Shown piece after piece: positions 1 through 11,597 of a stretch of 11,597 bases of DNA (positions within the stretch are counted from its first letter, which is position 1; each line of letters begins with the position of its first letter). The notes under the pieces were generated by a model. It had not been told where the DNA came from and ran no database searches. It saw only the letters and a list, made by a program, of their open reading frames with translations. The stretch comes from a virus (lineage: Duplodnaviria; Heunggongvirae; Uroviricota; Caudoviricetes). The DNA lies in IMG/VR virus record IMGVR_UViG_638341087_000009, positions 1 to 11,597 of that record, one strand, 5' to 3'. The position numbers and the translations under genes are program-made.

Positions 1-478
1 ACAGAGAATCCACCCATAACACTGTTTTTGGTTTTAACTGTTCCGCGTGCGCTGAGCCGCATTCACCGCATCACAAAATTCACTTTAAAAAGGGCGGCAG
101 AGCAGCCACGGAGTAAAACTGATACCGCCAAACGTCACCAGAAAATTGATAACAGAGGGCGTTGCAGCGGGGTTGTCACTTAAGCGTATGGTCAACCTGA
201 CAACCCGGTGTCCTCAACGGGGAAGGAATAACCCCGCCATACTTACCGCCGCGCCATTTCGCGGAGTGCCACAACCGGAAGCGCACGGTCGACGAAAATT
301 TAACGACAGGCTATCTATGAACCAGCTACCTCGCCGTGCGCTTTCGCGTTATGGTCTGACTTTTCAGGGAAATATCCTTTCAGTAAACTGTCAGTGCCGG
401 ATGCTCACCCGTGTCCGGCGCACGTACTCCACCTCACCCGTGGAGAACTCCTTAATCACCAACCCTCAGGAGGGTGAA

Positions 479-754
479 ATGTCGACTGAAAATGATGAAA
501 TCATTAACTCCCTGATACGCCAAATTAATAATTTTGATAAAGCATTGCAGCATGCTGCGGCGCGTAGTGATATAACTCTTTTAGCAATTTCATTTCTTGC
601 ATCTGTTATGGATAAAAATGAAGTCGTACGACAGAGTCTTGTTGATTATATCGACTCGCTTCAACCCGGCACTTTCAATCATGAGAGCTTCAATCATGAG
701 AAAGAGCATGTTAAGTCTGTAATTAATTCTCTTATTTTGAATCAAAAGAATTAA
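479..754 (+). CDS. Hypothetical small protein (91 aa), AT-rich insert (moron-like) in the early-left region
   Basis: ATG at 479 preceded by AGGAGGG (466-472, 6-nt spacing). Visibly lower GC than flanks. In-frame 15-bp tandem duplication (674-686 / 689-701, encoding FNHES/FNHEK). The upstream part of the 146..754 track ORF is Arg/Pro-rich, GC-rich and has no SD, so the start was moved to 479. No family recognised. Confidence 0.5.
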   Translation: MSTENDEIINSLIRQINNFDKALQHAAARSDITLLAISFLASVMDKNEVVRQSLVDYIDSLQPGTFNHESFNHEKEHVKSVINSLILNQKN

Positions 755-1052
755 TGCTTTTTGTTGCAAAGTAATTTTCAAGGGGTTCTATTCGAATCCC
801 TTTCTTTTTCATTAACAAGCCAAACCCCTTATCAATGATGTCCATTAGATCCAGGAAGTATTTTTCATGTAAATCCTGGTTATCAGAGAGCTGCTTCTCT
901 TCGTACAGACCGATAAAGGCACGACGCACGTTACCGGATATAGTATCGATGGTTTCTTTTTCTACGGTACTCAGGTCAAGAGTCGCCAGTTGGGAACGAA
1001 CTATATTCGCTGCCATTTCCTGGAATTGCATTGGTAAATCTTTAAATTCCAT
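732..1052 (-). CDS. Hypothetical protein (106 aa), last gene of the leftward early operon
   Basis: ORF with GAGG 6 nt upstream of ATG (complement of 1050-1052). Its 3' end overlaps the 479..754 gene convergently by 23 nt. No family recognised. Confidence 0.5.
   Translation of the reverse strand: MEFKDLPMQFQEMAANIVRSQLATLDLSTVEKETIDTISGNVRRAFIGLYEEKQLSDNQDLHEKYFLDLMDIIDKGFGLLMKKKGIRIEPLENYFATKSINSFDSK
780..809 (+). terminator. Candidate intrinsic terminator downstream of the 479..754 gene
   Basis: Hairpin 782-788 / 794-800 (GGGGTTC / GAATCCC, one G-U pair, 5-nt loop) followed by TTTCTTTTT (801-809). It lies inside the 3' end of the convergent 732..1052 ORF. Confidence 0.35.
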
Positions 1053-1074
1053 TATTAGCCTCGTTGGTTAGCTA

Positions 1075-1293
1075 TTAACGCGGGTATGTAATCATTCTGG
1101 CAATGCTTAATGCCGCTGCTTTTTCCAGATTGGTGATATCCTGCTCCAGAGCGGACAGATTTTCAGCCTGCTTAGCCCTGGCTTCATTAGCCCATTTCAG
1201 ATCCTGCGCTGCATTAATTTTCTGGCGCATCCACTCATAAAGTTCATCATCGGTATAGTCTGGCGAGATGATGACGGGTTCTCGTTTCTGCAT
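1075..1293 (-). CDS. Hypothetical small coiled-coil-like protein (72 aa)
   Basis: ORF with GAGGAA 5 nt upstream of ATG (complement of 1291-1293). Charged, helical-looking sequence; 22-nt gap to the next gene downstream. Confidence 0.55.
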   Translation of the reverse strand: MQKREPVIISPDYTDDELYEWMRQKINAAQDLKWANEARAKQAENLSALEQDITNLEKAAALSIARMITYPR

Positions 1294-1322
1294 ACTGATT
1301 CCTCGCGGTGCTGCTTCGCTTA

Positions 1323-1451
1323 TCAGCCGTTAGATTTTGCCGAGCTGGAAAGCGCCTGTTTAAACTCACTGAAGCTGAGAGCTTCTTCGCCTTCGGCAAG
1401 GCCTTCGAAGTATTCTTCGTAAGCCTTTTCCATGATTGTGTCGAAATCCAT
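1323..1451 (-). CDS. Small acidic protein (42 aa), not in the supplied ORF track
   Basis: Hand translation of the minus strand gives MDFDTIMEKAYEEYFEGLAEGEEALSFSEFKQALSSSAKSNG. AGGTGA lies 6 nt upstream; the start sits 1 nt after the stop of the upstream 80-aa gene. The two listed ORFs covering this interval (1247..1456 -, 1308..1505 +) look like frame shadows. Confidence 0.45.
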   Translation of the reverse strand: MDFDTIMEKAYEEYFEGLAEGEEALSFSEFKQALSSSAKSNG

Positions 1452-1452
1452 A

Positions 1453-1695
1453 TCACTCACCTGAGTTTCTTTCCAGCCAGCGACGGGCACCATTTTCGGT
1501 TTTAAACGTTTTGCTTTTGGTATACGTCATCGCGGTGAATGTGCCGTCCTGGTTGGGAAACACGCCGTACACCAGAGATTCATTGTTGCCAAGATCGATA
1601 GTATCCATGCTGACCTCATTTCCCCTTAACGCCGGGGTAGCGGAACTAAAAAACTGCTGCGCTGTTATATAAAGTGTTCCCGCCGTCATGTTCAT
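1453..1695 (-). CDS. Hypothetical protein (80 aa), first gene of the leftward early operon
   Basis: ORF with GAGGCG 4 nt upstream of ATG; sits about 85 nt downstream of the pL-like promoter. Not Arg-rich, so not obviously N-like. An internal Met would give a 50-aa product. Confidence 0.5.
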   Translation of the reverse strand: MNMTAGTLYITAQQFFSSATPALRGNEVSMDTIDLGNNESLVYGVFPNQDGTFTAMTYTKSKTFKTENGARRWLERNSGE

Positions 1696-1787
1696 ACGCC
1701 TCGGGCTGGCTACTTAACCCCTGACCACTGCCGGGTAACTCGAGGTATTGCCCTGCGTTCTGTGGGGCGGGGTGGGTTGGTGAGCGC

Positions 1788-1817
1788 ATCATAAAACACA
1801 TAAAATGTGTTAGTCAA
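1788..1817 (-). promoter_or_regulatory. pL-like sigma70 promoter for the leftward early operon
   Basis: Minus strand reads TTGACT (complement of 1812-1817), 18-bp spacer, TATGAT (complement of 1788-1793). Read directly from the sequence. Confidence 0.5.
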
Positions 1818-1831
1818 CACAAAAAAAGTGT
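1795..1831. promoter_or_regulatory. Two operator-like palindromes (ACACA-N5-TGTGT type) inside the pL-like promoter
   Basis: Site A 1795-1811 AACACA-TAAAA-TGTGTT, a perfect 17-bp palindrome in the promoter spacer. Site B 1817-1831 ACACA-AAAAA-AGTGT, overlapping the -35. Centres are 21 bp apart (two helical turns). The same motif recurs at 2849-2865. Confidence 0.5.
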
Positions 1832-1840
1832 GCGCAAGAA

Positions 1841-1872
1841 TAAAAAAACTCCCATTCAAGAGGTGATGGGAG
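1841..1872 (-). terminator. Intrinsic terminator ending the repressor/toxin-antitoxin transcript
   Basis: Stem 1849-1855 CTCCCAT / 1866-1872 ATGGGAG, followed on the minus strand by a 7-nt U tract (plus-strand A run 1842-1848). Immediately downstream of the ParE-like stop. Confidence 0.6.
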
Positions 1873-1883
1873 GTGGTTGATTA

Positions 1884-2171
1884 TTAACCGTTACCAGGAT
1901 ATTGCTGACGAGCATGTATCACGCTTACAATTTCAATGCTTGAAGTCGCTACCCTGTATAGGATTATGTAGTTAGGGTGGGTCACAATTTCTCTCAATCC
2001 AGAAACCCGTTCGCTTGGCGGGTATAGATACGGATGCTCAGATAGGGGCAGCACCGATGTTTCAATGCGTATTTTTAGTCTGCGCGCTGCCGGAGGGTTT
2101 TTTTTAGCAATGTAAGTTATAATCTGACTTAAATCATCGCGAGCAGACGGTAACCATAAAACGGGCAGCAT
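1884..2171 (-). CDS. parE: ParE/RelE-family type II toxin (95 aa)
   Basis: MLPVLWLPSARDDLSQIITYIAKKNPPAARR...YIILYRVATSSIEIVSVIHARQ fits the ParE pattern (L.W...A..DL..I..YIA...P.AA ... Y.I.YRV......I..V.HARQ). The start overlaps the upstream antitoxin stop (TAATG). The longer track ORF (136 aa) has an implausible Arg/Lys-rich N-terminal extension. Confidence 0.85.
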   Translation of the reverse strand: MLPVLWLPSARDDLSQIITYIAKKNPPAARRLKIRIETSVLPLSEHPYLYPPSERVSGLREIVTHPNYIILYRVATSSIEIVSVIHARQQYPGNG

Positions 2172-2362
2172 TACACGCTCCCGTTTTCCATGGCAATTTG
2201 ATTGATGATTTTTTCCATTTTTGCCATTACTTCGTCGTGCGGTATTGCTGGTCGTGGATCTGCAAGGCTTGCTGCAACCTTGGCGCGCAACCATTCGTTG
2301 TAACTGTTTTCTTGCTCGATAGTTTCAAATTCTGAAACTATTGGCGAAAGAACTGTGCTCAT
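2171..2362 (-). CDS. Cognate antitoxin (63 aa), ParD-like by context
   Basis: MSTVLSPIVSEFETIEQENSYNEWLRAKVAASLADPRPAIPHDEVMAKMEKIINQIAMENGSV. GAGAGG lies 7 nt upstream of the ATG; it is translationally coupled to parE. Assignment as antitoxin is strong; the exact family is less certain. Confidence 0.65.
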   Translation of the reverse strand: MSTVLSPIVSEFETIEQENSYNEWLRAKVAASLADPRPAIPHDEVMAKMEKIINQIAMENGSV

Positions 2363-2390
2363 AGTATGCCTCTCTGTCGTATGGTTGTAA

Positions 2391-2789
2391 TTATGCTCGA
2401 CGTCCTTTTTGGGCGGCGAGCCATCTTGCAACTGTGCGATCCATTGATTCTTTTTTGTCTTTCATGTCTTTAAGCATTTGTTCTTGCTCCTCTTCTGGGA
2501 AAGCCCCAAATGTTTGAAGCAAATCTCTCTGGCGCGGTCCTATTTTCATTGTATCAGGTACTACAACCTGTTCATCCTCGCTCGGAGGAAGCATGAACCA
2601 AAAAATAGGCCGAGCAGTTATTTGTGAAAGTCGATCTAAATTGTCAGGATTTGGACTAACCAAGCCTGCAGACCATCGCTGCACTGTTTGTTGCGACACT
2701 CCAACTAATTTCCCAAGCTCCGCCTGACTCCAGCCTGTTTCAGACAAGAGTTTCTTTATTCTATATGCAGTAATCTCGAGTGTTTTCAT
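2391..2789 (-). CDS. racR: Prophage repressor, RacR-like (XRE-family HTH), 132 aa from the proposed start
   Basis: HTH motif ...GWSQAELGKLVGVSQQTVQRWSAG... near the N-terminus. Start chosen at MKTLEIT (complement of 2787-2789); a TAGAAT -10 lies about 7 nt upstream, suggesting a near-leaderless mRNA like lambda cI from pRM. The alternative upstream start (2879) has no SD and would run through the operator region. Confidence 0.75.
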   Translation of the reverse strand: MKTLEITAYRIKKLLSETGWSQAELGKLVGVSQQTVQRWSAGLVSPNPDNLDRLSQITARPIFWFMLPPSEDEQVVVPDTMKIGPRQRDLLQTFGAFPEEEQEQMLKDMKDKKESMDRTVARWLAAQKGRRA

Positions 2790-2796
2790 AGTAACA

Positions 2797-2869
2797 ATTC
2801 TACTCAAAAAACGAGTAATGCGCGACACACGAAAATCGGGTTTACATATACACATTTTTTGTGTAATCT
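2797..2869. promoter_or_regulatory. Immunity switch region: divergent promoters and operator palindromes
   Basis: Leftward -10 TAGAAT (complement of 2797-2802) with a poor -35. Rightward TTTACA (2841-2846) with a -10-like TGTAAT/TAATCT (2862-2869). Palindrome TACACA-TTTTT-TGTGTA at 2849-2865 has the same half-sites as the pL operators. A second, different palindrome TACTC-N7-GAGTA sits at 2801-2817. Confidence 0.5.
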
Positions 2870-2895
2870 CCAGTCGCATGATGGAGGTACAAATA

Positions 2896-3168
2896 ATGAA
2901 TGATCATGTTAAGAAAAGGGTCGCGGGAAAATTTTCACAACGAGAACTGGCTATGTTAATGAGCACGAAACAACAAAGCGTATCTCGTTGGTTCAACTCT
3001 AAGTTCCCTGCATCAAGGGTGCTTCACTTGTGTCAATTGATGCAGTGGGAGGTTACTCCACACGAACTCCGACCAGACATTTACCCTAACCCAACCGACG
3101 GTTTACCCGTTGGATGTAAGGCTAACACATCAAATGCACCGGAGTTGATTCATGAAAATCAAGCATGA
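2896..3168 (+). CDS. ydaS: YdaS-like Cro/HTH protein (90 aa)
   Basis: GGAGG (2883-2887) 8 nt before ATG 2896. HTH-like ...FSQRELAMLMSTKQQSVSRW.... Divergent from the repressor, as in the Rac racR-ydaS-ydaT arrangement. The track ORF from 2818 is an upstream extension through the operator region. Confidence 0.7.
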   Translation: MNDHVKKRVAGKFSQRELAMLMSTKQQSVSRWFNSKFPASRVLHLCQLMQWEVTPHELRPDIYPNPTDGLPVGCKANTSNAPELIHENQA

Positions 3169-3577
3169 ACACATCCGCATGGCGATGAATGCCTGGGCGC
3201 ATCCGGACGGCGAGAAAGTACCGGCTGCGAAAATTACCAAAGCGTATTTCGAACTGGGTATGACGTTCCCGGAACTGTATGACGACAGCCATCCGGAAGC
3301 CCTGGCTCGCAATACCCAGAAAATTTTCCGCTGGGTAGAGAAAGACACTCCTGATGCGGTTAAAAAAATTCAGGCGTTGTTACCAGCTATCGAAAAAGCA
3401 ATGCCACCTCTGCTGGTGGCCCGAATGCGCAGCCATAGCTCAGCCTATTTTCGGGAACTGGTGGAGACGCGGGAACGACTGGTGAGAGACGCTGATGATT
3501 TTGTCGCAGTGGCGATCGCTGGTTTCAACCAGATGAATCGTGGTGGCCCTGCAGGAAATATTGTGGCTGTGCATTGA
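3152..3577 (+). CDS. ydaT: YdaT-like protein (141 aa)
   Basis: ATG 3152 with GGAG 7 nt upstream; overlaps the ydaS 3' end by 17 nt. Sequence MKIKHEHIRMAMNAWAHPDGEKVPAAKITKAYFELGMTF... and the synteny recall Rac prophage YdaT. Confidence 0.7.
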   Translation: MKIKHEHIRMAMNAWAHPDGEKVPAAKITKAYFELGMTFPELYDDSHPEALARNTQKIFRWVEKDTPDAVKKIQALLPAIEKAMPPLLVARMRSHSSAYFRELVETRERLVRDADDFVAVAIAGFNQMNRGGPAGNIVAVH

Positions 3578-3648
3578 CTCGCAATATTCATACCGGATCA
3601 CTTCCGGCAATTTGTGAGTAAAAAGATTCGGTATCAGAAGAGGTGAGT

Positions 3649-4686
3649 ATGGCTAACGCCTGGCTCAGATTATGGCATGACATGCCAAATGATCCTAAGT
3701 GGCGAACAATTTCCAGGGTGTCAGGACAGCCAATCGCAACAGTGATGGCTGTGTATATCCACCTTCTGGTGAGCGCGTCACGAAATGTCACGACATGTCA
3801 CGGCGTGTCACTACGTGGTCACATTGATGTCACGACGGAAGATTTAGCAAGTGCGCTTGATGTGACGGAAGACGTAATTGATTCAATTTTGCATGCAATG
3901 CAGGGGCGGGTTCTGGATGGTGACCTTATTTCCGGATGGGAAAAACGTCAGGTGCTGAAAGAGGACAATGGTAACGTTTCGCAAACGGCAAAATCCCCGG
4001 CAGAGCGCAAGAGAGCGCAGCGGGAGCGCGAAAAGCTGCGGAAATATGATGCTGATTGTCACGATGAGTCACGACGTGTCACGCATCTGTCACGACAAGT
4101 CACGACAGATAAAGATACAGATACAGAATTAAACCCCACACATAACGCGCGCATGCGCGAGAGTGCTCCAACCGGTGAGTCGAATGGTGCGTCGTTGCAG
4201 ACAGCCGAACCTGAATACCTGGACGGCCTGAGCGAACCGATCGGGAAATTTTCGATGACCACTGTCTGGCAGCCGTCGCCGGATTTTCGACAACGGGCAG
4301 CAGTGTGGGGTATGGCTCTGCCTGAGCCGGAATTTACACCTGCTGAGCTTGCCGCATTCCGGGATTACTGGATGGCGGAGGGGAAGGTTTTCACGCAGGT
4401 TCAGTGGGAGCAGAAATTTGCCCGCCACGTGCAGCACGTCAGGGCACAGGTAAAACCAGTCAGCAAGGGGGTAAGCCATGCAGCATCAGGTGGCACGGCA
4501 TCACGGGCAGTTCAGGAAATCCGGGCAGCACGCGAACAGTGGGAACGTGACAACGGATTTATCAGCAACGGAAACGGCCTGGAAGCTGTGGGAGCTTATG
4601 GGGGAGGTGTATTCGAACCGCTGGACACAGAAGAACGGGGCCGCACCTTCGAAGCTCTGGATTGCCCAGATTGGCGCGATGACTGA
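3649..4686 (+). CDS. Replication initiator (lambda O-like role); 3' boundary uncertain
   Basis: ATG 3649 with GAGGTG 4-9 nt upstream. The N-terminus MANAWLRLWHDMPNDPKWR looks like a phage replisome-organiser N-domain. The gene contains two iteron clusters in its low-complexity linker, as the lambda origin lies inside O. The last 209 nt overlap the P-like gene in another frame. Confidence 0.65.
   Translation: MANAWLRLWHDMPNDPKWRTISRVSGQPIATVMAVYIHLLVSASRNVTTCHGVSLRGHIDVTTEDLASALDVTEDVIDSILHAMQGRVLDGDLISGWEKRQVLKEDNGNVSQTAKSPAERKRAQREREKLRKYDADCHDESRRVTHLSRQVTTDKDTDTELNPTHNARMRESAPTGESNGASLQTAEPEYLDGLSEPIGKFSMTTVWQPSPDFRQRAAVWGMALPEPEFTPAELAAFRDYWMAEGKVFTQVQWEQKFARHVQHVRAQVKPVSKGVSHAASGGTASRAVQEIRAAREQWERDNGFISNGNGLEAVGAYGGGVFEPLDTEERGRTFEALDCPDWRDD
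3777..3834. repeat. Iteron cluster 1: six GTCAC(G) repeats at 10-11 bp spacing
   Basis: GTCACG at 3777, 3787, 3797 and 3829; GTCACT at 3807; GTCAC at 3818. Units resemble tGTCACGnnn. Confidence 0.75.
4058..4135. repeat. Iteron cluster 2 (five GTCACG repeats) with an adjacent AT-rich patch: candidate origin
   Basis: GTCACG at 4058, 4068, 4078, 4089 and 4099 (10-11 bp phasing), followed by AGATAAAGATACAGATACAGAATTAAACC (4107-4135). Confidence 0.7.
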
Positions 4687-5140
4687 ACAGCAAATCCGGC
4701 TGGTCTGCCGTCAGTGCATGGACCGCTGCCGGGCGGGTGAAACGTGGCCCCCGGACCTTGCTGAGTTTGTTGCACTGATTTCGGAGAGTGGGGCAAATCC
4801 ATTTGGTCTTACGGTGGATGCAGTGATGGAAGAGTACCGGCGCTGGCGCAATGAATCCTGGCGATACGACGGGAGTGATAAATACCCGTGGCCACAGCCT
4901 GTGCTGTACCACATCTGCCTCGAAATGCGTACCAGAGGGATTGAGCGCCAGATGACGCAGGGTGAGTTAAAACGACTTGCGGAACGGCAACTGACGAAAT
5001 GGGCAAAGCATGTTGGTAACGGGATGAGTGTTCCGCCAGTGCGACGACAACTGGAAGGGGCGAAACACCCGCAAGGGCCAACGCCAATTGAACGGCTGAA
5101 ACAGGAATACGAACGCCGGAAGGCAGCTGGTTTTATTTGA
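4478..5140 (+). CDS. Lambda P-like replication protein (DnaB helicase loader), 220 aa
   Basis: Segment ...DLAEFVALISE...MEEYRRWRNESWRYDGSDKYPWPQPVLYHICLEMRTRG...ELKRLAERQL... matches from memory lambda P (...FVAWCRE...YEYCRKRGLYPDAESYPWKSNAHYWLVTNLYQNMRANALTDAELRRKAADEL...). AAGGGGG (4465-4471) lies 6 nt before ATG 4478. Alternative in-frame starts are ATG 4598 and ATG 4679, the latter overlapping the O-like stop as ATGACTGA. Confidence 0.7.
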   Translation: MQHQVARHHGQFRKSGQHANSGNVTTDLSATETAWKLWELMGEVYSNRWTQKNGAAPSKLWIAQIGAMTEQQIRLVCRQCMDRCRAGETWPPDLAEFVALISESGANPFGLTVDAVMEEYRRWRNESWRYDGSDKYPWPQPVLYHICLEMRTRGIERQMTQGELKRLAERQLTKWAKHVGNGMSVPPVRRQLEGAKHPQGPTPIERLKQEYERRKAAGFI

Positions 5141-5173
5141 ATCTGAGAAACGATTTTGTCGGAGGAAATATTA

Positions 5174-5848
5174 ATGGAAACCGTATCTGACGCACTGAAA
5201 GCACTGAAAAAAGCCTCTTCACATGTGGTGGCAGCTCGCCTTGGAATCAGTCGTGAAGAGGCTGTCAACGAGCTGTGGGAACTCAAAAGAAAAGGCGTCG
5301 TTGATAAAACTGGTCACACCTGGTTTCTGGCTGGCGAAGGTGAATCCCGGGTAACCGAAGAGCGGCCAGTAAAATCTGAAGCACAGGATATGCTGACCGG
5401 GGAGGTCGAACAAAAAGTTACCGCAGACATGATGATTGAGTTTATCGGTCAGGATGGGGCTAAAACGTGTGAGGAACTGGCGGGTAAGTTCGGTGTCAGT
5501 ACTCGCAAGGTTGCTTCCACGCTGGCGGTGGTAACCGCAACGGGGCGGCTGGCACGCGTTAATCAGAACGGTAAATTTCGTTACTGCATGCCGGGCGATA
5601 ATTTACCAGCAGAGCCGAAAGCCGCGCTGGTAACGGAAAGTGATGGTAAGGCCTTTCCTCAGCCAGCAGGTGCTGCGTTACCAGTCCGGGAAGCCGCAAC
5701 ACAGGAAGAAATTAAAACAGAAACTGTGGCGGACATTGTGCAGCCGTTGCCATCGTTTACCGAAACGCAAGCAGATGAGCTGATTTTTCCGTCCCTTCGC
5801 AGGGCAAACCTGGCGCTGCGCAGGGCGAAAAGTGATGTTCAGAAGTGA
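5174..5848 (+). CDS. Hypothetical protein (224 aa) with two winged-helix-like repeats
   Basis: GGAGGA (5161-5166) 7 nt before ATG 5174. Two similar modules of about 50 aa (ALKALKKASSHVVAARLGISREEAVNELWELKRKGVVDKTG and MIEFIGQDGAKTCEELAGKFGVSTRKVASTLAVVTATGRLARVNQNG). Function unknown. Confidence 0.6.
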   Translation: METVSDALKALKKASSHVVAARLGISREEAVNELWELKRKGVVDKTGHTWFLAGEGESRVTEERPVKSEAQDMLTGEVEQKVTADMMIEFIGQDGAKTCEELAGKFGVSTRKVASTLAVVTATGRLARVNQNGKFRYCMPGDNLPAEPKAALVTESDGKAFPQPAGAALPVREAATQEEIKTETVADIVQPLPSFTETQADELIFPSLRRANLALRRAKSDVQK

Positions 5849-5959
5849 GAGCGAGTCTGCGCCGCGCTGCGGGAGCTGAACAAGCACCGGGATATTGTTC
5901 GACAGATTACTGATTCTTCCCGCCGTGTTGTATCGGAAAAGTGATTGCCGGAGGCGCTT

Positions 5960-6382
5960 ATGGCAAAAGTATTTACACAAGAAGAGCGGGAAAAAATTAA
6001 AGGGCAGGTTGTTGAACTAGTACGCCGGAGTGGGCGCGAGACGTTACGGCAACTGGAAGCCAAGACAGGTGCGACAAGATATCTGATGAGCGTTCTCGCC
6101 AGAGAGCTGGTTGCCAGTGGCGATGTATACAACTCTGGTTACGGGTTATTCCCGTCTGAACAGGCTCGTAAGGACTGGCAAAATGCCCGCAAAAAACTAT
6201 CTAGGGCAAAGGTGAAGAAACCATCTGTGGTTGATCCGGATCTTATCTGGTCATTACCAGACGGAGAAATACGCCGCTACGACAGGCGTCTGAACATAAT
6301 CTGTAGCGAGTGCCGGAAGAGCGAAGCTATGCAGCGTGTACTGGCTTTCTATCAGGGTAATTTTCAGAAGGTGCTGTTGTGA
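5960..6382 (+). CDS. Hypothetical protein (140 aa), nin-like region
   Basis: GGAGG (5950-5954) 5 nt before ATG 5960. Charged N-terminus with a C-terminal CSEC motif. No family recognised. Confidence 0.55.
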   Translation: MAKVFTQEEREKIKGQVVELVRRSGRETLRQLEAKTGATRYLMSVLARELVASGDVYNSGYGLFPSEQARKDWQNARKKLSRAKVKKPSVVDPDLIWSLPDGEIRRYDRRLNIICSECRKSEAMQRVLAFYQGNFQKVLL

Positions 6383-6487
6383 GCCAAATTAACAATCGGA
6401 ACTTCGTGAAGAGAAAGCATAATCCAAATCTGAATAATTAAGTTCAGCACTGTAAATAAAATTTAATCCTTAACTGGAGGTATATTT

Positions 6488-6700
6488 ATGTTAAATACAC
6501 AGAAAGCCATTAATGCGGAAAAATATAACGAGTGGGCAAGAAAATTCTCTGAGCAGATTTTTAAAATTACTGGCGATGAGAATGTGGCAAAAAATGAATT
6601 AGAACCGTGGACACCTGAAGGAAACGCACCAAATTATTGCTGGTGGGAGGTTGATCCGGTTGATGCTGCAAATGAAGCCATGAGTTACCACAACGATTAA
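6488..6700 (+). CDS. Hypothetical small protein (70 aa), AT-rich
   Basis: GGAGG (6476-6480) 7 nt before the ATG, in an AT-rich island. No family recognised. Confidence 0.55.
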   Translation: MLNTQKAINAEKYNEWARKFSEQIFKITGDENVAKNELEPWTPEGNAPNYCWWEVDPVDAANEAMSYHND

Positions 6701-6704
6701 TGTC

Positions 6705-6735
6705 GGGAGGCCGCCCGAAAGGGCGGTAAGAAATG
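6705..6735 (+). promoter_or_regulatory. SD-hairpin-start codon arrangement upstream of the membrane-protein gene
   Basis: GGGAGG (6705-6710), then hairpin CCGCCC-GAAA-GGGCGG (6711-6726, GAAA tetraloop), then ATG 6733. The hairpin sits between the SD and the start codon. Confidence 0.35.
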
Positions 6736-6951
6736 ACTACATTATTCAGAAAAGAATATCCGCAAAAAAGTAGGGCGACAGAATTTTTGTTTCTCATTCT
6801 GTTTATCGTATTGATGATACCGATATCCCCTCTAATTTTTGTCTGGGCAATCGGGAAAATAATTGAGCCAGTTACTGAATTGTATACCGACGTTGTATGG
6901 GCGTCGTTCAACACACTGCACAATAAAATTAATCCGTATAAGGAAAACTGA
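6733..6951 (+). CDS. Small predicted membrane protein (72 aa)
   Basis: Hydrophobic stretch EFLFLILFIVLMIPISPLIFVWAIG consistent with a transmembrane helix. Its stop overlaps the next start as TGATATG. Confidence 0.5.
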   Translation: MTTLFRKEYPQKSRATEFLFLILFIVLMIPISPLIFVWAIGKIIEPVTELYTDVVWASFNTLHNKINPYKEN

Positions 6952-6952
6952 T

Positions 6953-7216
6953 ATGGCAACTTTGACAAAAAAAGAACGGGCATGGTTAAACGAATTACAG
7001 GAAGTTCTTGATCGCTGTCCATCACCGAAAAAAATTGGCTTTTACACCATTGGCGATAAAAGCATTTACCTGTATGACCTACGCCGCATGGATGAAATCA
7101 TGGAGGCTCTTGATAATCGTTCGTCGATGGATTGGTGTGTTGCTGTTCATGATATGAATGCAGGGTTTGATGAAAAGATTTTGTTCCCCTCATCAGTTGA
7201 AAGCACTGCGGGTTAA
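6953..7216 (+). CDS. Hypothetical small protein (87 aa)
   Basis: ATG 6953 two nt after the upstream stop, with AAGGAAAA upstream. The track ORF from 6863 is an upstream extension overlapping the preceding gene. Confidence 0.5.
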   Translation: MATLTKKERAWLNELQEVLDRCPSPKKIGFYTIGDKSIYLYDLRRMDEIMEALDNRSSMDWCVAVHDMNAGFDEKILFPSSVESTAG

Positions 7217-7226
7217 GGAGTAACAC

Positions 7227-8096
7227 ATGACCACTATTACCAAAGAACGTATTGAATTGTTCATTAAAAATCCGGTTGAAAACGGGCTTACCCGTGGTGA
7301 ACAAATGGAACTGGCACGGATTGCGCTGGCATCGCTGGAAGCAGAGCCGGTGGCAAAGATTATAGCTCATTACCCATTAGGGGTTGACGTAGGCAAACAA
7401 AAATTCGTACAGGCCATTAGAGAGCTTCCTGACTTTGGCGGATATCTATTTGCCGCCCCTCCAGCGCCGATAGTGCCGGAAGAAATGTATTGGCAGGATG
7501 CGCCAGTTGAAGGCAGCAGCAAAGCGGCTGCATACGCTACAGGCTGGAACGATTGCCGCGAAGCCATGCTTCAGTCCGGAAACTTTCGGGAAAATAAAGA
7601 TTCGTCAACCAATAATTTTCGGAAAATCCCGGAAGCGTCAACCAGCTCTCCGGTAACTCCGGCTCTTCTGCCTGGTGGTTTCACCATTGAGGAGGCGAAG
7701 GAATTACATGAAGACCTGGTACGCAGCCACATAAGCAAGGCCTTAAGTGGCGAAAAGATGAAAAAGAAAGATCGCGATGCTGATTTGCGCTGGATTCATG
7801 GCGTTATAGTTCAGGCAGCGTGGTTTGTAAAAGCATCACTGGAGCAGAATGCACTATCGGGCAACTATCCGGTAACTCCGGATAGTTGGATAAGCTGTAG
7901 TGAGCGAATGCCGGATACCAAAACAGCCGTTCTTGTTGCCGTGGAGTTTGACAGGAAAGGTGACTGGCGAATGAAATGGGCGACTTACATCCCGGGGCAT
8001 CCTGACGCTAATGATGGGTGGATAATTCCTGGTGCGTCGTGGAAACCGTCACACTGGATGCCGCTACCAGAACCGCCGCAGGAGGTGCGCCAATGA
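7227..8096 (+). CDS. DUF551 domain-containing phage protein (289 aa)
   Basis: AAGGAG (7215-7220) 6 nt before the ATG. C-terminus ...WISCSERMPDTKTAVLVAV...GWIIPGASWKPSHWMPLPEPP matches the DUF551 signature recalled from memory (WxxxxExxP ... HWMPLPEPP). The roughly 220-aa N-terminal region is unassigned. Confidence 0.7.
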   Translation: MTTITKERIELFIKNPVENGLTRGEQMELARIALASLEAEPVAKIIAHYPLGVDVGKQKFVQAIRELPDFGGYLFAAPPAPIVPEEMYWQDAPVEGSSKAAAYATGWNDCREAMLQSGNFRENKDSSTNNFRKIPEASTSSPVTPALLPGGFTIEEAKELHEDLVRSHISKALSGEKMKKKDRDADLRWIHGVIVQAAWFVKASLEQNALSGNYPVTPDSWISCSERMPDTKTAVLVAVEFDRKGDWRMKWATYIPGHPDANDGWIIPGASWKPSHWMPLPEPPQEVRQ

Positions 8097-8176
8097 ACTG
8101 GCCTGAAGCATTTGCAATTACAGGCGTTGCTATGGCTATCGCTTTTTTAGTATATGTTATTTGTCGGTGGGGGTAA
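8093..8176 (+). CDS. Unannotated tiny hydrophobic ORF (27 aa): MNWPEAFAITGVAMAIAFLVYVICRWG
   Basis: ATG overlaps the upstream stop (ATGA); GGAGGTG (8081-8087) lies 5 nt upstream. One predicted transmembrane segment. Too short for the ORF track. Confidence 0.35.
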   Translation: MNWPEAFAITGVAMAIAFLVYVICRWG

Positions 8177-8211
8177 AAACGTTCGCCGGGATTAACACCA
8201 AAGGAGGGAAT

Positions 8212-8316
8212 ATGTCGGATGATATCTCACTGGCAATGGAAGGTGCGCTGGCTGTTATTGCTGTTGTGGGCGTTTACTGCCTGGTTGTGTTTTTGATGGA
8301 TCGACTAGGGAACTAA
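8212..8316 (+). CDS. Unannotated small membrane peptide (34 aa): MSDDISLAMEGALAVIAVVGVYCLVVFLMDRLGN
   Basis: Strong SD AAGGAGGG (8201-8208) 3-4 nt before the ATG. One transmembrane segment with a charged C-terminus. Confidence 0.45.
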   Translation: MSDDISLAMEGALAVIAVVGVYCLVVFLMDRLGN

Positions 8317-8324
8317 ATTCATTA

Positions 8325-8346
8325 CGATATGGGAATTCCCATATCG
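8325..8346. repeat. 22-bp perfect palindrome CGATATGGGAATTCCCATATCG
   Basis: Exact inverted repeat with no spacer, centred on GAATTC, between the small-peptide gene and the hok promoter. Confidence 0.8.
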
Positions 8347-8358
8347 GGTAAAAACGGT

Positions 8359-8386
8359 TTGCGGTAAAGCGAGAGTTAAGTAGAAT
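8359..8386 (+). promoter_or_regulatory. Candidate promoter for the hok/mok mRNA
   Basis: TTGCGG (8359-8364), 16-bp spacer, TAGAAT (8381-8386). Predicted start near 8393 gives an mRNA of about 420 nt to the terminator at 8812, similar to known hok mRNAs. Confidence 0.4.
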
Positions 8387-8440
8387 TGCTGCGGGCGCTT
8401 GAGGCTGTCTGCCTCGGGCATGCCACCGTAAGGCAGACAG

Positions 8441-8512
8441 AGAAAAGCCCCAGTTAACATTACGCGTCCGGCAAGACGCTTAACATTAATCTGAGGCCAT
8501 ATCTATGCTCTA
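8441..8512 (-). ncRNA. Candidate Sok-like antisense RNA (about 70 nt)
   Basis: Weak minus-strand promoter (TTGCCT, complement of 8543-8548; 17-bp spacer; TAACCT, complement of 8520-8525). Transcript would be antisense to the mok-frame SD and ATG (8493-8507). It would end in a minus-strand hairpin (arms 8491-8497 / 8447-8453, inner stem 8464-8468 / 8475-8479) followed by UUUUCU. Structure-based inference only. Confidence 0.3.
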
Positions 8513-8561
8513 CACACGTAGGTTAGCCTCTTACGTGCCGAAAGGCAAGGAGAAGCAGGCT

Positions 8562-8717
8562 ATGAAGCAGCAAAAGGCGATGCTAATCGCCCTGATCGTC
8601 ATCTGTTTAACCGTCATAGTGACGGCACTGGTAACGAGGAAAGACCTCTGCGAGGTACGAATCCGAACCGGCCAGACGGAGGTCGCTGTCTTCACAGCTT
8701 ACGAACCTGAGGAGTAA
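8562..8717 (+). CDS. hokD: Hok/Gef-family type I toxin (51 aa), closest to HokD/RelF; in-frame Mok-like extension from ATG 8505
   Basis: MKQQKAMLIALIVICLTVIVTALVTRKDLCEVRIRTGQTEVAVFTAYEPEE is the Hok family signature (transmembrane helix plus ...TRK.LCE..IR.G..EVAAF.AYE). AAGGAG (8547-8552) lies 9 nt before ATG 8562. The upstream in-frame ATG 8505 with its own GAGG gives a 70-aa form, as in chromosomal mok genes. Confidence 0.85.
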   Translation: MKQQKAMLIALIVICLTVIVTALVTRKDLCEVRIRTGQTEVAVFTAYEPEE

Positions 8718-8785
8718 GAGACCCGGCGGGGGAGAAATCCCTCGCCACCGCTGATGTGTCAGGCATCCTCAACGCACCCGCACTT

Positions 8786-8812
8786 AACCCGCTTCGGCGG
8801 GTTTTGTTTTTT
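8786..8812 (+). terminator. Intrinsic terminator of the hok transcript
   Basis: Stem AACCCGC / GCGGGTT with TTCG loop (8786-8803), followed by TTGTTTTTT. Confidence 0.65.
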
Positions 8813-8884
8813 CTGGTCGTTCTGGTTTACAATCCATCCGTCAGCCTGAACAACTGGCACCTGCTGCGCCAGCAGAGAAAACAG

Positions 8885-9163
8885 ATGGCGCACGATACCA
8901 AATTTTACAATTCGGATAACTCTGCCGCCCCTGCCAGCAGGCACGGGCGGCGTTCCCGCACTTTCAAATCTGACTGGTTCCAGCATCCCCCATGCACTGA
9001 AGAACAGGCCGAGTGGCTAATTCAGTGCTACCGCAGACACGGATACGAGATTAAGAAAGCCCTCAGCCTCGATTATCGTCACTGGATAATCTCCGTCAGG
9101 CTTCCTTACTCCGAACGACCACCGCGTCCGTCCCGCACATTCCAGCAACGCATCTGGAGGTAA
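8885..9163 (+). CDS. Hypothetical protein (92 aa), Rem-like by position
   Basis: ATG 8885; the track ORF from 8756 would run through the terminator. The order hok, small protein, DUF968 protein, Q matches my recollection of Qin prophage hokD-rem-ydfU-quuQ. Weak SD. Confidence 0.5.
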   Translation: MAHDTKFYNSDNSAAPASRHGRRSRTFKSDWFQHPPCTEEQAEWLIQCYRRHGYEIKKALSLDYRHWIISVRLPYSERPPRPSRTFQQRIWR

Positions 9164-9164
9164 C

Positions 9165-10211
9165 GTGCGGGTATTACTTCGACCTGTTCTGGTACCGGAA
9201 CTCGGGCTGGTGATCGTTAAGCCGGGCCGTGAATCCATGCCGGTATTCCACAATACCCGGGTACTGGTGGAGCCGGAACCGAAAAGCATGCGTAATCTGC
9301 CGTCCGGGGTCGTTCCTGCCGTTCGCCAGCCGCTGGCGGAGGATAAATCATTACTGCCATTTTTCAGCGACGAACGAGTGATTCGTGCTGCTGGTGGCGC
9401 TGGCGCATTGTCTGACTGGCTGTTGCGCCATATTAAATCCTGCCAGTGGCCACACGGCGATTATCATCACAGCGAAACCGTCATTCACCGTTATGGTACC
9501 GGCGCAATGGTGTTGTGCTGGCACTGCGACAACCAGCTGCGCGACCAGACCTCCGAATCACTGGAACATCTGGCTCAACAAAACCTGGCAGCCTGGATGA
9601 TTGACGTCATACGCCATGCAATGAATGGCTCGCAGGAGCGTGAATTATCTCTGGCTGAATTATCCTGGTGGGCGGTCCGCAATCAGGTGGCGGACGCGCT
9701 ACCGGAAGCGGTATTACGTCGTTCGCTGGGGTTGCGTGCGGAAAAAATCCGCTCAATGTACCGTGAAAGCGACATCGTACCGGGAGAGCAGACCGCCACC
9801 AGCATACTGAAGCAGCGCACAAAAAATCTTGCGCCGCTGCCTCACGCTCACCAGCAAAAACCGCCACAGGAAAAGACGGTGGTCAGCATTGCCGTTGATC
9901 CTGAGTCTCCGGAATCTTTCATGAAACGACCTAAACGTCGCCGCTGGGTTAACGAGAAATACACGCACTGGGTGAAGACACAGCCGTGTGCGTGTTGTGG
10001 TAAGCCTGCTGACGATCCGCATCACCTGATTGGTCATGGTCAGGGGGGAATGGGGACAAAATCTCACGATATTTTCACGCTACCGCTGTGTCGGGAGCAT
10101 CACAACGAGCTTCATGCGGATCCGCTGGCGTTCGAAGAAAAGCATGGTTCTCAGGTTGATTTAATTTTTCGTTTTCTTGATCACGCCTTTGCAACTGGCG
10201 TGCTTGGGTAA
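9165..10211 (+). CDS. ydfU: YdfU-like DUF968 protein (348 aa) with a Cys/His metal-binding-like C-terminus
   Basis: GTG start 4 nt after GGAGG (9156-9160). C-terminal motif ...QPCACCGKPADDPHHLIGHGQGGMGTKSHDIFTLPLCREHHNELH.... Length is close to K-12 YdfU (about 349 aa, recalled from memory). Confidence 0.7.
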   Translation: MRVLLRPVLVPELGLVIVKPGRESMPVFHNTRVLVEPEPKSMRNLPSGVVPAVRQPLAEDKSLLPFFSDERVIRAAGGAGALSDWLLRHIKSCQWPHGDYHHSETVIHRYGTGAMVLCWHCDNQLRDQTSESLEHLAQQNLAAWMIDVIRHAMNGSQERELSLAELSWWAVRNQVADALPEAVLRRSLGLRAEKIRSMYRESDIVPGEQTATSILKQRTKNLAPLPHAHQQKPPQEKTVVSIAVDPESPESFMKRPKRRRWVNEKYTHWVKTQPCACCGKPADDPHHLIGHGQGGMGTKSHDIFTLPLCREHHNELHADPLAFEEKHGSQVDLIFRFLDHAFATGVLG

Positions 10212-10223
10212 AAGAGGTGACTG

Positions 10224-10583
10224 ATGCTCATAGATTTGGTTTTACCTTACCCGCCGACGGTGAACACTTACTGGCGACGCCGTGGCAGCACATATTTTGT
10301 ATCAAAAGCCGGGGAGCGTTATCGCCGGGCTGTGGCGCTTATTGTTCGCCAGCAGCGACTGAAATTAAGCCTGTCCGGACGGCTGGCAATAAAAATTATT
10401 GCAGAGCCACCGGATAAGCGTCGTCGTGACCTGGACAATATTCTGAAAGCACCGCTGGATGCGCTGACGCATGCGGGAGTGCTCATTGATGACGAGCAGT
10501 TTGATGAAATCAATATTGTACGTGGTCAGCCAGTATCTGGTGGACGGCTGGGTGTGAAGATTTACAAAATTGAGAGTGAGTGA
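10224..10583 (+). CDS. rusA: RusA-family Holliday junction resolvase (119 aa)
   Basis: ...LPYPPTVNTYWRRRG...PPDKRRRDLDNILKAPLDALTHAGVLIDDEQ...GGRLGVKIY... matches RusA motifs recalled from memory (PPSNNRYY..., PDRRRRDLDN..K...DALT.AG...DD, GGRL). GAGGTG lies 4 nt before the ATG. Confidence 0.85.
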   Translation: MLIDLVLPYPPTVNTYWRRRGSTYFVSKAGERYRRAVALIVRQQRLKLSLSGRLAIKIIAEPPDKRRRDLDNILKAPLDALTHAGVLIDDEQFDEINIVRGQPVSGGRLGVKIYKIESE

Positions 10584-10591
10584 GCGTAAAT

Positions 10592-11122
10592 ATGATATAT
10601 CCGGAAATTACAGGCAAAAGCGGCGAACATTTACGCCTGAACACGCTGGAAGCAGTCTGGATCCAGGGGAAATTACGGATGTGGGGGCGGTGGTCGTATA
10701 TCGGTGGGGGTAAATCCGGAAATATGTTTAACCGGTTACTGGTTTCGAAAAAGCTGACGAAAACAGCAGTTAATGAGGTTTTACGCAGCATGAAGAAATC
10801 CGGGCTGGAAAAACCGGAACTTGAGGCATTTTTTCGGGATATGACCAGAGGGAAGCAGAAGAGCTGGTTGTCACATTGTACAGACACAGAGGCGTTGATT
10901 ATTGATCGCGTTATCAGTGAGGTGCTTGGGGAATATCCCGGGCTAATCAATATTCTCCGGCAAAGGTACGAAGGACGGGGAATGAGTAAGAGAAAAATGG
11001 CAGAATGTTTAAATCGTACTCACCCGGAATGGTGTTTCAGCACATGTGAGAAACGTATTGCAGGTTGGTTAGCCGTGGCTGAACACATGCTTTATGTACC
11101 TATGCACGATTCATTTCGATAA
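10592..11122 (+). CDS. Q-like late-gene antiterminator (176 aa); assignment mainly positional
   Basis: Immediately follows rusA (start 8 nt after its stop) and precedes a short terminator-bounded region, as Q does in lambdoid phages. Sequence similarity to Q families is not verified. Confidence 0.5.
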   Translation: MIYPEITGKSGEHLRLNTLEAVWIQGKLRMWGRWSYIGGGKSGNMFNRLLVSKKLTKTAVNEVLRSMKKSGLEKPELEAFFRDMTRGKQKSWLSHCTDTEALIIDRVISEVLGEYPGLINILRQRYEGRGMSKRKMAECLNRTHPEWCFSTCEKRIAGWLAVAEHMLYVPMHDSFR

Positions 11123-11129
11123 AAAAAGC

Positions 11130-11158
11130 TTGCTTTTTTACGCAGAAACAGCTTGAAT
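11130..11158 (+). promoter_or_regulatory. Candidate pR'-like late promoter
   Basis: TTGCTT (11130-11135), 17-bp spacer, TTGAAT (11153-11158), 8 nt after the Q-like stop. Weak match; placement is by analogy. Confidence 0.2.
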
Positions 11159-11216
11159 TCCTGTAAGCTTCGCAAAGCTGTATCGCGAGGCGAAATGCAA
11201 GTTTTTTCGCACAAGG

Positions 11217-11241
11217 AAGCCACCGGAAGGTGGTTTTTTTT
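11217..11241 (+). terminator. Intrinsic terminator (tR'-like)
   Basis: Stem GCCACC / GGTGG(T) with GGAA loop (11219-11233), followed by an 8-nt T run (11234-11241). Confidence 0.65.
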
Positions 11242-11364
11242 GTGTCCGTAATATACAGCAGCGCAATAAATTCGCTGGTGGTTATTAATACCGTTCTTTC
11301 AGCTTGCTGGCTTTTTCGACAAGAGTTATTGGTGTGTCACGTTAACCGAAAAAGGGAAAAAGAC

Positions 11365-11562
11365 ATGCTGAAACAGCAGGATATGACCGAAACCGCCAGA
11401 GTGGTGTTTAATGAATTAAGCGTTACCGAACCGGCGACAGTCGGGGAGGTTGCGCAGAATACTTACCTTTCACGCGAACGCTGCCAGTTAATACTGACCC
11501 AGCTTGTTATGGCGGGTCTGGCAGACTATCAGTGCGGTTGTTACAGACGCCTTCAGTCCTGA
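11365..11562 (+). CDS. Hypothetical small protein (65 aa), first gene after the tR'-like terminator
   Basis: ATG 11365 with AAGGG 8 nt upstream. The track ORF from 11230 would begin inside the terminator. Not hydrophobic, so not a holin. Confidence 0.45.
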   Translation: MLKQQDMTETARVVFNELSVTEPATVGEVAQNTYLSRERCQLILTQLVMAGLADYQCGCYRRLQS

Positions 11563-11575
11563 AGGCTTTTTATTT
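11549..11575 (+). terminator. Candidate intrinsic terminator overlapping the stop codon of the 65-aa gene
   Basis: Stem GCCTTCA / TGAAGGC with GTCC loop (11549-11566), followed by TTTTTATTT. Confidence 0.5.
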
Positions 11576-11597
11576 GTGGTGAATGGGCGGCTGGTGG

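Follow-up and report, generated by a model that had tools for sequence, protein, structure and literature searches.

The known systems closest to the gene reported here include ones from Escherichia coli K-12 and from phage lambda. YdaW of K-12 appears in a list of E. coli proteins predicted to be transcription factors (PMC9308461), and an overexpression screen for prophage 'blockers' of RcaT, the toxin of retron-Sen2, picked it up (bioRxiv 10.1101/2020.06.22.160242). In lambda, the ren gene has been described as 'likely involved in DNA replication', and a Ren-Rex protein interaction was observed in two-hybrid assays (bioRxiv 10.1101/2021.04.19.439022). The literature mentions DUF1627, the family that includes YdaW, only as a synteny marker, and phage records label its relatives 'putative YdaW family protein'. 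The locus analyzed here lies within an 11,597-nucleotide stretch of viral DNA, positions 1 to 11,597 of IMG/VR virus record IMGVR_UViG_638341087_000009, which we designated the window. The gene in question occupies positions 5174-5848 of the plus strand and is a nonsense-truncated allele of a DUF1627/YdaW-family gene, in which a G-to-A change at position 5848 has replaced the Trp225 codon (TGG) with TGA.

The open reading frame (ORF) begins with an ATG at 5174, ends with the TGA at 5846-5848 and encodes 224 amino acids (aa). A Shine-Dalgarno-like GGAGG at 5161-5165 (+), read directly from the sequence, precedes the ATG by 8 nucleotides (nt), and homologues all begin METV... at an ATG that matches 5174. 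The 224-aa ORF of a preliminary description of this DNA was therefore confirmed, but position 5848 is not the natural end of the gene that it was taken to be; the stop is premature, and homologues, which are 250-256 aa in length, run 32 aa further. When the 771-nt gene was compared with NZ_CP023844, the single mismatch was at 5848, where the window has A and the reference has G. Homologues carry W or L at position 225, in a column that is 100% hydrophobic. The closest relative, P0003, matches all 224 residues of the window product except Met137, which is Ile in P0003, and then continues WERVCAALRELNKHRDIVRQITDSSRRVVSEK. The original 3' end is still present in the window as an orphan: the 32 codons beyond residue 224 remain in frame to 5944, and positions 5849-5944 (+), which comprise codons 226-256 and the original stop at 5942-5944, translate to ERVCAALRELNKHRDIVRQITDSSRRVVSEK followed by that stop, identical to the tail of P0003. 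Since the missing C-terminal part is encoded in frame past the TGA, the gene is a truncated member of DUF1627 and not a non-member. Programmed recoding at 5846-5848 was considered and rejected, as a single transition explains the difference from the TGG of the relatives. An annotation of the locus should record a DUF1627 gene truncated by a nonsense mutation, with an ancestral end at 5944.

The TGA allele was found in none of 5426 complete E. coli genomes, despite 993 records that are at least 99% identical. Two Logan assemblies, SRR12949988 and SRR12949989, carried it in a context that matched the window, and its occurrence in two independent read-set assemblies indicated that the variant is real and specific to a lineage. 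The other database entries of '224 aa' were genes cut by contig ends. Public short-read contigs L003, L006 and L007 end at ...AAGTG, one base short of the polymorphic position; these ends could reflect an assembly-graph branch at the polymorphic site or at a repeat boundary in those samples.

The coding sequence at 5174-5848 (+), 224 codons plus TGA, was assigned to the family by PF07789 and phrog_630. The product matched Pfam PF07789 (DUF1627) with 270.8 bits (cutoff 28.1) and an expectation value (E) of 3.9e-81 over profile positions 1-134 of 155, and the match ends at position 134 because of the change of TGG to TGA at codon 225, which leaves the part of the profile for the C-terminal helix uncovered. 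The match to phrog_630 spanned aa 1-224 (E 4.5e-114), and the N-terminal METV... winged helix of full-length members was present. A search of NCBIfam with the product returned nothing specific, and a sequence search of the PDB gave no significant match (best E 0.068). Many E. coli chromosomes carry genes under the annotation 'DUF1627 domain-containing protein' to which this gene is 99.9% identical at the nucleotide level, and DUF1627 gene matches were found in 2721 of the 5426 complete E. coli genomes, at up to 9 places per genome. DUF1627/YdaW is an already known and abundant prophage gene family of E. coli, and the product is not a novel 224-aa protein. Among 1.84 billion cluster representatives, 155 matched at E ≤ 1e-3. 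Full-length relatives with 21-88% identity were collected in an alignment of 43 sequences; this alignment was too divergent to serve as a seed for the genome scan, which was seeded with a 10-sequence subset and returned matches solely from Escherichia, Enterobacter, Raoultella and Buttiauxella. As judged from these sequence searches, the family is small and confined to the Enterobacteriaceae. One record that bears the name of a phage of Actinobacillus pleuropneumoniae, PP818812.1, contains a gene with 86% nucleotide identity, an unexpected host for a family with this restriction.

AlphaFold2 was run on the 224-aa product of the window and, with the 43-sequence alignment, on a 256-aa full-length relative. 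Both forms were predicted to contain two winged helices, which supported, at the level of fold, the two tandem winged-helix-like units of the preliminary description. In the window product the first unit (wH1) was modeled with helices at residues 4-11, 16-23 and 27-40 and strands at 43-46 and 49-52, and the second (wH2) with helices at 84-94, 99-106 and 110-123 and strands at 127-131 and 134-138; the predicted local distance difference test score (pLDDT) of the two units was 84-93. The full-length model had the same two folds, with a pLDDT of 92-96 for wH1 (aa 1-55) and about 90 for wH2 (aa 83-140), and disorder at aa 57-79 and aa 145-200.

Module wH1 (aa 1-55; 5174-5338, +) is neutral to acidic, with a predicted helix-strand-helix-helix-strand-strand order and a pLDDT of 86-96. 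Its mean net charge across the family is -1.8, its third helix is acidic (-1.3), and residues L34 and W50 are invariant in the alignment. It is followed by a disordered linker (aa 56-82; 5339-5419, +; pLDDT 38-42) that varies from 13 to 40 aa in length. The acidic linker described earlier between the modules is real in the window product (charge -3) but is not a trait of the family, in which the mean charge is +0.7. Module wH2 (aa 83-140; 5420-5593, +; AlphaFold2 pLDDT 84-92) is basic, with family mean charges of +3.8 for the module, +2.5 for helix 3 and +2.7 for the wing, and it gave weak, sub-threshold Pfam matches to HTH_PafC, FeoC, HTH_11 and DDRGK. The Pfam PF07789 model begins only at wH2, so that wH1 is not described by it.

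The region after wH2 had been described as a Pro/Ala-rich tail. The composition was as described, with 29% proline plus alanine and a net charge of -6 over aa 141-198, but the region is a linker that leads to a conserved motif and a helix rather than a tail. This second linker (aa 141-185; 5594-5728, +) is disordered and acidic (pLDDT 33-50), and across the family it has a mean charge of -5.7, a proline plus alanine content of 27-29% and a length of 31-75 aa. The linear motif (aa 186-207; 5729-5794, +) reads hydrophobic-x-x-[IL]P-x-F-x(2-3)-R-x-DDL-hydrophobic-hydrophobic-P-[ST]; it is kept across relatives of 25-45% identity, and P206 is nearly invariant. The low AlphaFold2 confidence of the motif (47-67) fits a segment that would fold upon binding of a partner. 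In the full-length model the motif is followed by a C-terminal helix (aa 208-255, pLDDT 91-96), which is basic (charge +5.8), has hydrophobic heptad positions at 208, 211, 215, 218, 222, 225, 228, 231/232, 235, 242 and 245, and includes the nearly invariant R216. Of this basic amphipathic helix, the window product retains a stub (aa 208-224; 5795-5845, +), residues 208-223 of which were helical in its model. In these models the family has a beads-on-a-string architecture, composed of wH1, a disordered linker, wH2, an acidic Pro/Ala linker, a short motif and a basic amphipathic heptad helix of about 48 residues. The truncated product would keep both winged helices and the linear motif, and the predicted loss of heptad positions 225-245 suggests that it is probably defective in any function that depends on the helix. 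UGA is a leaky stop codon, and rare read-through by tRNA-Trp could yield a low level of exact wild-type protein.

The two modules of about 50 aa had also been described as similar to one another. Within this protein that similarity did not hold upon self-alignment: BLASTP of the two halves gave E 0.4, a Smith-Waterman alignment of the modules against 2000 shuffles gave a z of 1.6, a score that 8.9% of the shuffles also reached, and no repeat was found within the gene at the DNA level. On these three results, a recent internal duplication was rejected. Similarity was detected only between family profiles, where hhalign aligned wH1 with wH2 at 93% and E 3e-7 over 53 columns in register, with 11% identity. 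This likeness is at the level of the winged-helix superfamily, as between unrelated winged-helix families. The same C-terminal motif and helix are joined to one winged helix, wH1, in P0241 (151 aa) and to three in P0208 and P0227 (308-311 aa), relatives that represent copy-number variation of the wH2-type module. The varying number of modules indicates that the protein is modular; a recent tandem duplication is not thereby established. A Foldseek search against viral structures found only generic or uncharacterised winged-helix phage proteins, with a template-modeling score of about 0.2, which is explained by the flexible linkers.

The gene was followed in the window by a second gene with which it travels. 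DUF1627 and the neighboring DUF977 gene form one mosaic block of 1.2 kb (5153-6361) that is 97.8% identical to locus L001, and the replication modules that precede the near-identical blocks are unrelated, being composed of DnaT-domain and lambda-P-like genes in the window and of HTH_36 and IstB/DnaC-like genes in L001 and L003. The homology breakpoint of the block lies 3-21 nt upstream of the ATG. The presence of the same block after unrelated replication modules argues against partnership with a specific initiator and favors a self-contained accessory module. A replication module preceded the DUF1627 gene in each of eight loci, drawn from four genera, with modules of different types and varying downstream neighbors; the position directly after the module was seen in the window, L001, L008, L009, L011, L013 and L014. 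Scans for promoters and terminators around the gene gave background levels, and iteron-like repeats were not found in it or next to it. Several prophages carry decayed copies, such as the K-12-type YdaW and a 97-aa stub in L012. P0121 and P0137 are chimeric ORFs in which the N-terminus of an initiator (DnaT-type O-like, or DUF1376 YdaU-like) is joined to the C-terminal part of DUF1627; their probable origin is deletion within prophages undergoing decay.

The gene is a truncated DUF1627/YdaW allele of a family with the beads-on-a-string architecture, and we lean modestly toward an explanation in which the family serves as an early accessory factor. The full-length protein would self-associate or dock to a partner by way of the C-terminal motif and helix, the basic wH2, and possibly the basic helix as well, would contact nucleic acid, and the acidic wH1 would bind protein. 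Such a protein may be a dispensable early factor of the ren/nin class, active in host takeover or anti-exclusion, rather than a core replication protein tied to one initiator. Several points weigh against this explanation. The putative roles of the helix in oligomerisation or docking, of wH2 in nucleic-acid binding and of wH1 in protein binding were derived from fold, charge and conservation, and the predicted coiled coil was drawn from a monomer model and the heptad pattern. Few surface residues are conserved in the winged helices, and the residues that never vary look structural. The retron evidence consists of a single screen hit for a truncated paralogue of 55% identity, with no published mechanism, and the PADLOC defence models gave only marginal matches, at the level of the winged helix (CARF, Csa3). 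In addition, the gene followed the replication module without exception in the loci examined, which could reflect a role in replication. The earlier suggestions for this protein, a putative DNA-binding regulator or a putative accessory factor in replication or exclusion, are compatible with the evidence.

Somewhat less probable, and still a serious contender, is the possibility that the nonsense mutation inactivated a prophage gene under relaxed selection and that the 224-aa product is a dead remnant with no role. The stop removes 32 conserved residues, including the heptad core positions 225-245, the allele is missing from the complete E. coli genomes and their 993 near-identical records, and DUF1627 genes are often decayed elsewhere, all of which speak for decay. 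However, the gene is one substitution away from intact copies, which points to a recent event, neither its expression signals nor its two folded domains are damaged, and K-12 YdaW, which lacks the whole C-terminal unit, nonetheless had a phenotype when overexpressed. It seems rather unlikely that the protein is a replication accessory that works together with the initiator and the helicase loader at the phage origin, in a role like that suggested for lambda Ren. Its location directly downstream of the replication module in the eight loci and the window, the frequent occurrence of winged helices in initiators and the description of lambda ren as likely involved in replication would agree with such a role, but the same DUF1627 sequence (99.9% nucleotide identity) is joined to unrelated initiator and loader pairs with a breakpoint at the start codon, which indicates no match to one initiator. 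The frequent truncation or deletion of the gene in prophages and the lack of iteron-like repeats in or beside it also argue against this role.

We consider it unlikely that the protein is a conventional dimeric transcription regulator of the MarR/ArsR type that acts on phage or host promoters. The listing of YdaW among predicted transcription factors and the basic charge of wH2 favor such a regulator, yet the matches to HTH_Crp_2 (21.5, cutoff 27), HTH_PafC (20.3, cutoff 32), FeoC (18.7, cutoff 21) and HTH_11 (17.0, cutoff 25) were all below the gathering scores, and NCBIfam matches to MntR and ArsR were far below cutoff. The models consist of bare winged helices of about 55 aa that lack dimerisation helices and have long disordered linkers between them, wH1 has an acidic helix 3, and the gene lies within a long operon without a divergent promoter or operator of its own. 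Binding of left-handed (Z-form) nucleic acid, as by a Zalpha domain, is very improbable. It was raised by the best PDB sequence match, the ADAR1 Zalpha entry 2l54, at the E of 0.068 given above, which is not significant. The helix-3 contacts to Z-DNA in ADAR1, Asn173 and Tyr177, align with Ala114 and Ala118 of wH2, in columns that are variable in the family, and entry 2l54 itself has Ala at both positions. With these contact residues missing, a Zalpha-like function was rejected as largely refuted.

The retron screen raised one further idea, namely that DUF1627 is a widespread family of prophage proteins that counter defence by neutralising toxins of abortive infection, for example RcaT of retron-Sen2, a proposal we regard as a long shot. 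K-12 YdaW contains wH1 and wH2 only and is 55% identical to the window product over wH1, linker and wH2. If the proposal is true, the wH1-wH2 part would suffice, the truncated allele, like K-12 YdaW, would still be active, and a second function, for instance in regulation or oligomerisation, would fall to the C-terminal motif and helix. The retron screen and the Ren paper are leads and not demonstrations.

The window as a whole covers the immunity genes and the early-right part of a Rac-like lambdoid prophage from E. coli. Its order is DicF RNA, DUF1391, ParE/PaaA2, repressor, YdaS-like, YdaT-like, DnaT-domain O-like and lambda-P-like loader genes, then DUF1627, which is followed by DUF977, DUF551, hok/sok, DUF968, RusA and a DUF1133 Q-like antiterminator. 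The DicF small RNA (92-143, minus strand; Rfam RF00039, 75 bits) is located at the left edge, the ParE-toxin/PaaA2-antitoxin pair (1884-2431, minus strand) adjoins the prophage repressor gene, and the hok/sok type I toxin-antitoxin locus lies at 8393-8717 (+), where Rfam sok scored 114 bits and positions 8505-8717 hold a Hok/Gef ORF. Taken at their longest, the O-like and P-like ORFs (3643-4686 and 4478-5140, +) share 209 nt; in public gene calls the P-like gene begins at 4679, with an overlap of 8 nt and a product of 153 aa. In intact relatives the DUF977 ATG lies 15 nt past the DUF1627 stop, and here an untranslated gap of 111 nt separates the two genes. In Escherichia ruysiae, the product of the gene after DUF1627 (L011:6004-8073, +) is an ATPase of 689 aa whose matches, of ORC/CDC6-like and STAND NTPase type, were weak, and the gene may be defence cargo at this position. 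Small Cys-rich, zinc-ribbon-like ORFs lie beside distant DUF1627 genes in Enterobacter, Raoultella and Buttiauxella (L008:5590-5856, L009:4778-5017 and L010:1145-1405); their identity as Lar-type anti-restriction proteins was rejected, as it had no support from Pfam or PHROGs.

Compared with lambda, in which the order is O-P-ren-nin-Q, the window has the order O-like, P-like, DUF1627, DUF977, DUF968, RusA, Q-like. The earlier placement of the gene where lambda carries ren and nin was correct as a map position and can be refined, since DUF1627 lies between P and ren. The ren relative of the window is, by its sequence matches, the next gene, DUF977 at 5960-6382 (+), which matched PF06163 (E 9e-30) and the 'Ren-like exclusion protein' family phrog_142 (E 1.7e-47) and whose product has the C-terminal motif of lambda Ren (12/20 identity, E 1e-6). 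The DUF1627 gene resembles lambda ren in its place in the early-right operon just downstream of the helicase-loader gene, and Ren/DUF977 and DUF1627 are both built on a small winged helix. The window product matched phrog_142 weakly as a whole protein (E 5.2e-6), with no single stretch that passes and a match of only aa 84-137 (wH2), and hhalign of wH2 with the neighboring DUF977 protein gave E 0.005 and 28% identity over 54 columns. No match of the DUF1627 product to PF06163 (DUF977) was obtained, and BLASTP against lambda Ren found nothing (E 17). Unlike Ren, DUF1627 has two winged helices and a C-terminal motif and helix of its own, and the ECRxSxAMxRVLAxY motif at the C-terminus of lambda Ren and DUF977 is absent from it and present in the product of the next gene.

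In contrast to ArsR/SmtB and MarR proteins, DUF1627 has no extra dimerisation helices and no ligand or metal site, and consists of two independent modules on flexible linkers. Its modules share with the Zalpha domains of ADAR1, PKZ, poxvirus E3L and CyHV ORF112 the same minimal fold of about 60 aa (alpha1-beta1-alpha2-alpha3-beta2-beta3; root-mean-square deviation 1.1-1.4 A), and W50 of wH1 corresponds to the conserved aromatic residue in the last strand of the wing, but the helix-3 Asn and Tyr contacts of Zalpha are absent from DUF1627 and are not conserved. Given that DUF1627 is present in about half of complete E. coli genomes, the domain map, with an acidic wH1, a basic wH2, a motif and a heptad helix, is a useful start for experiments, and natural alleles that lack the C-terminal helix exist. 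YdaW of the K-12 Rac prophage, one of the closest known systems, shares the position after the prophage replication genes; it was truncated by a deletion after wH2, whereas the window copy was truncated by the change of TGG to TGA and ends at codon 224.
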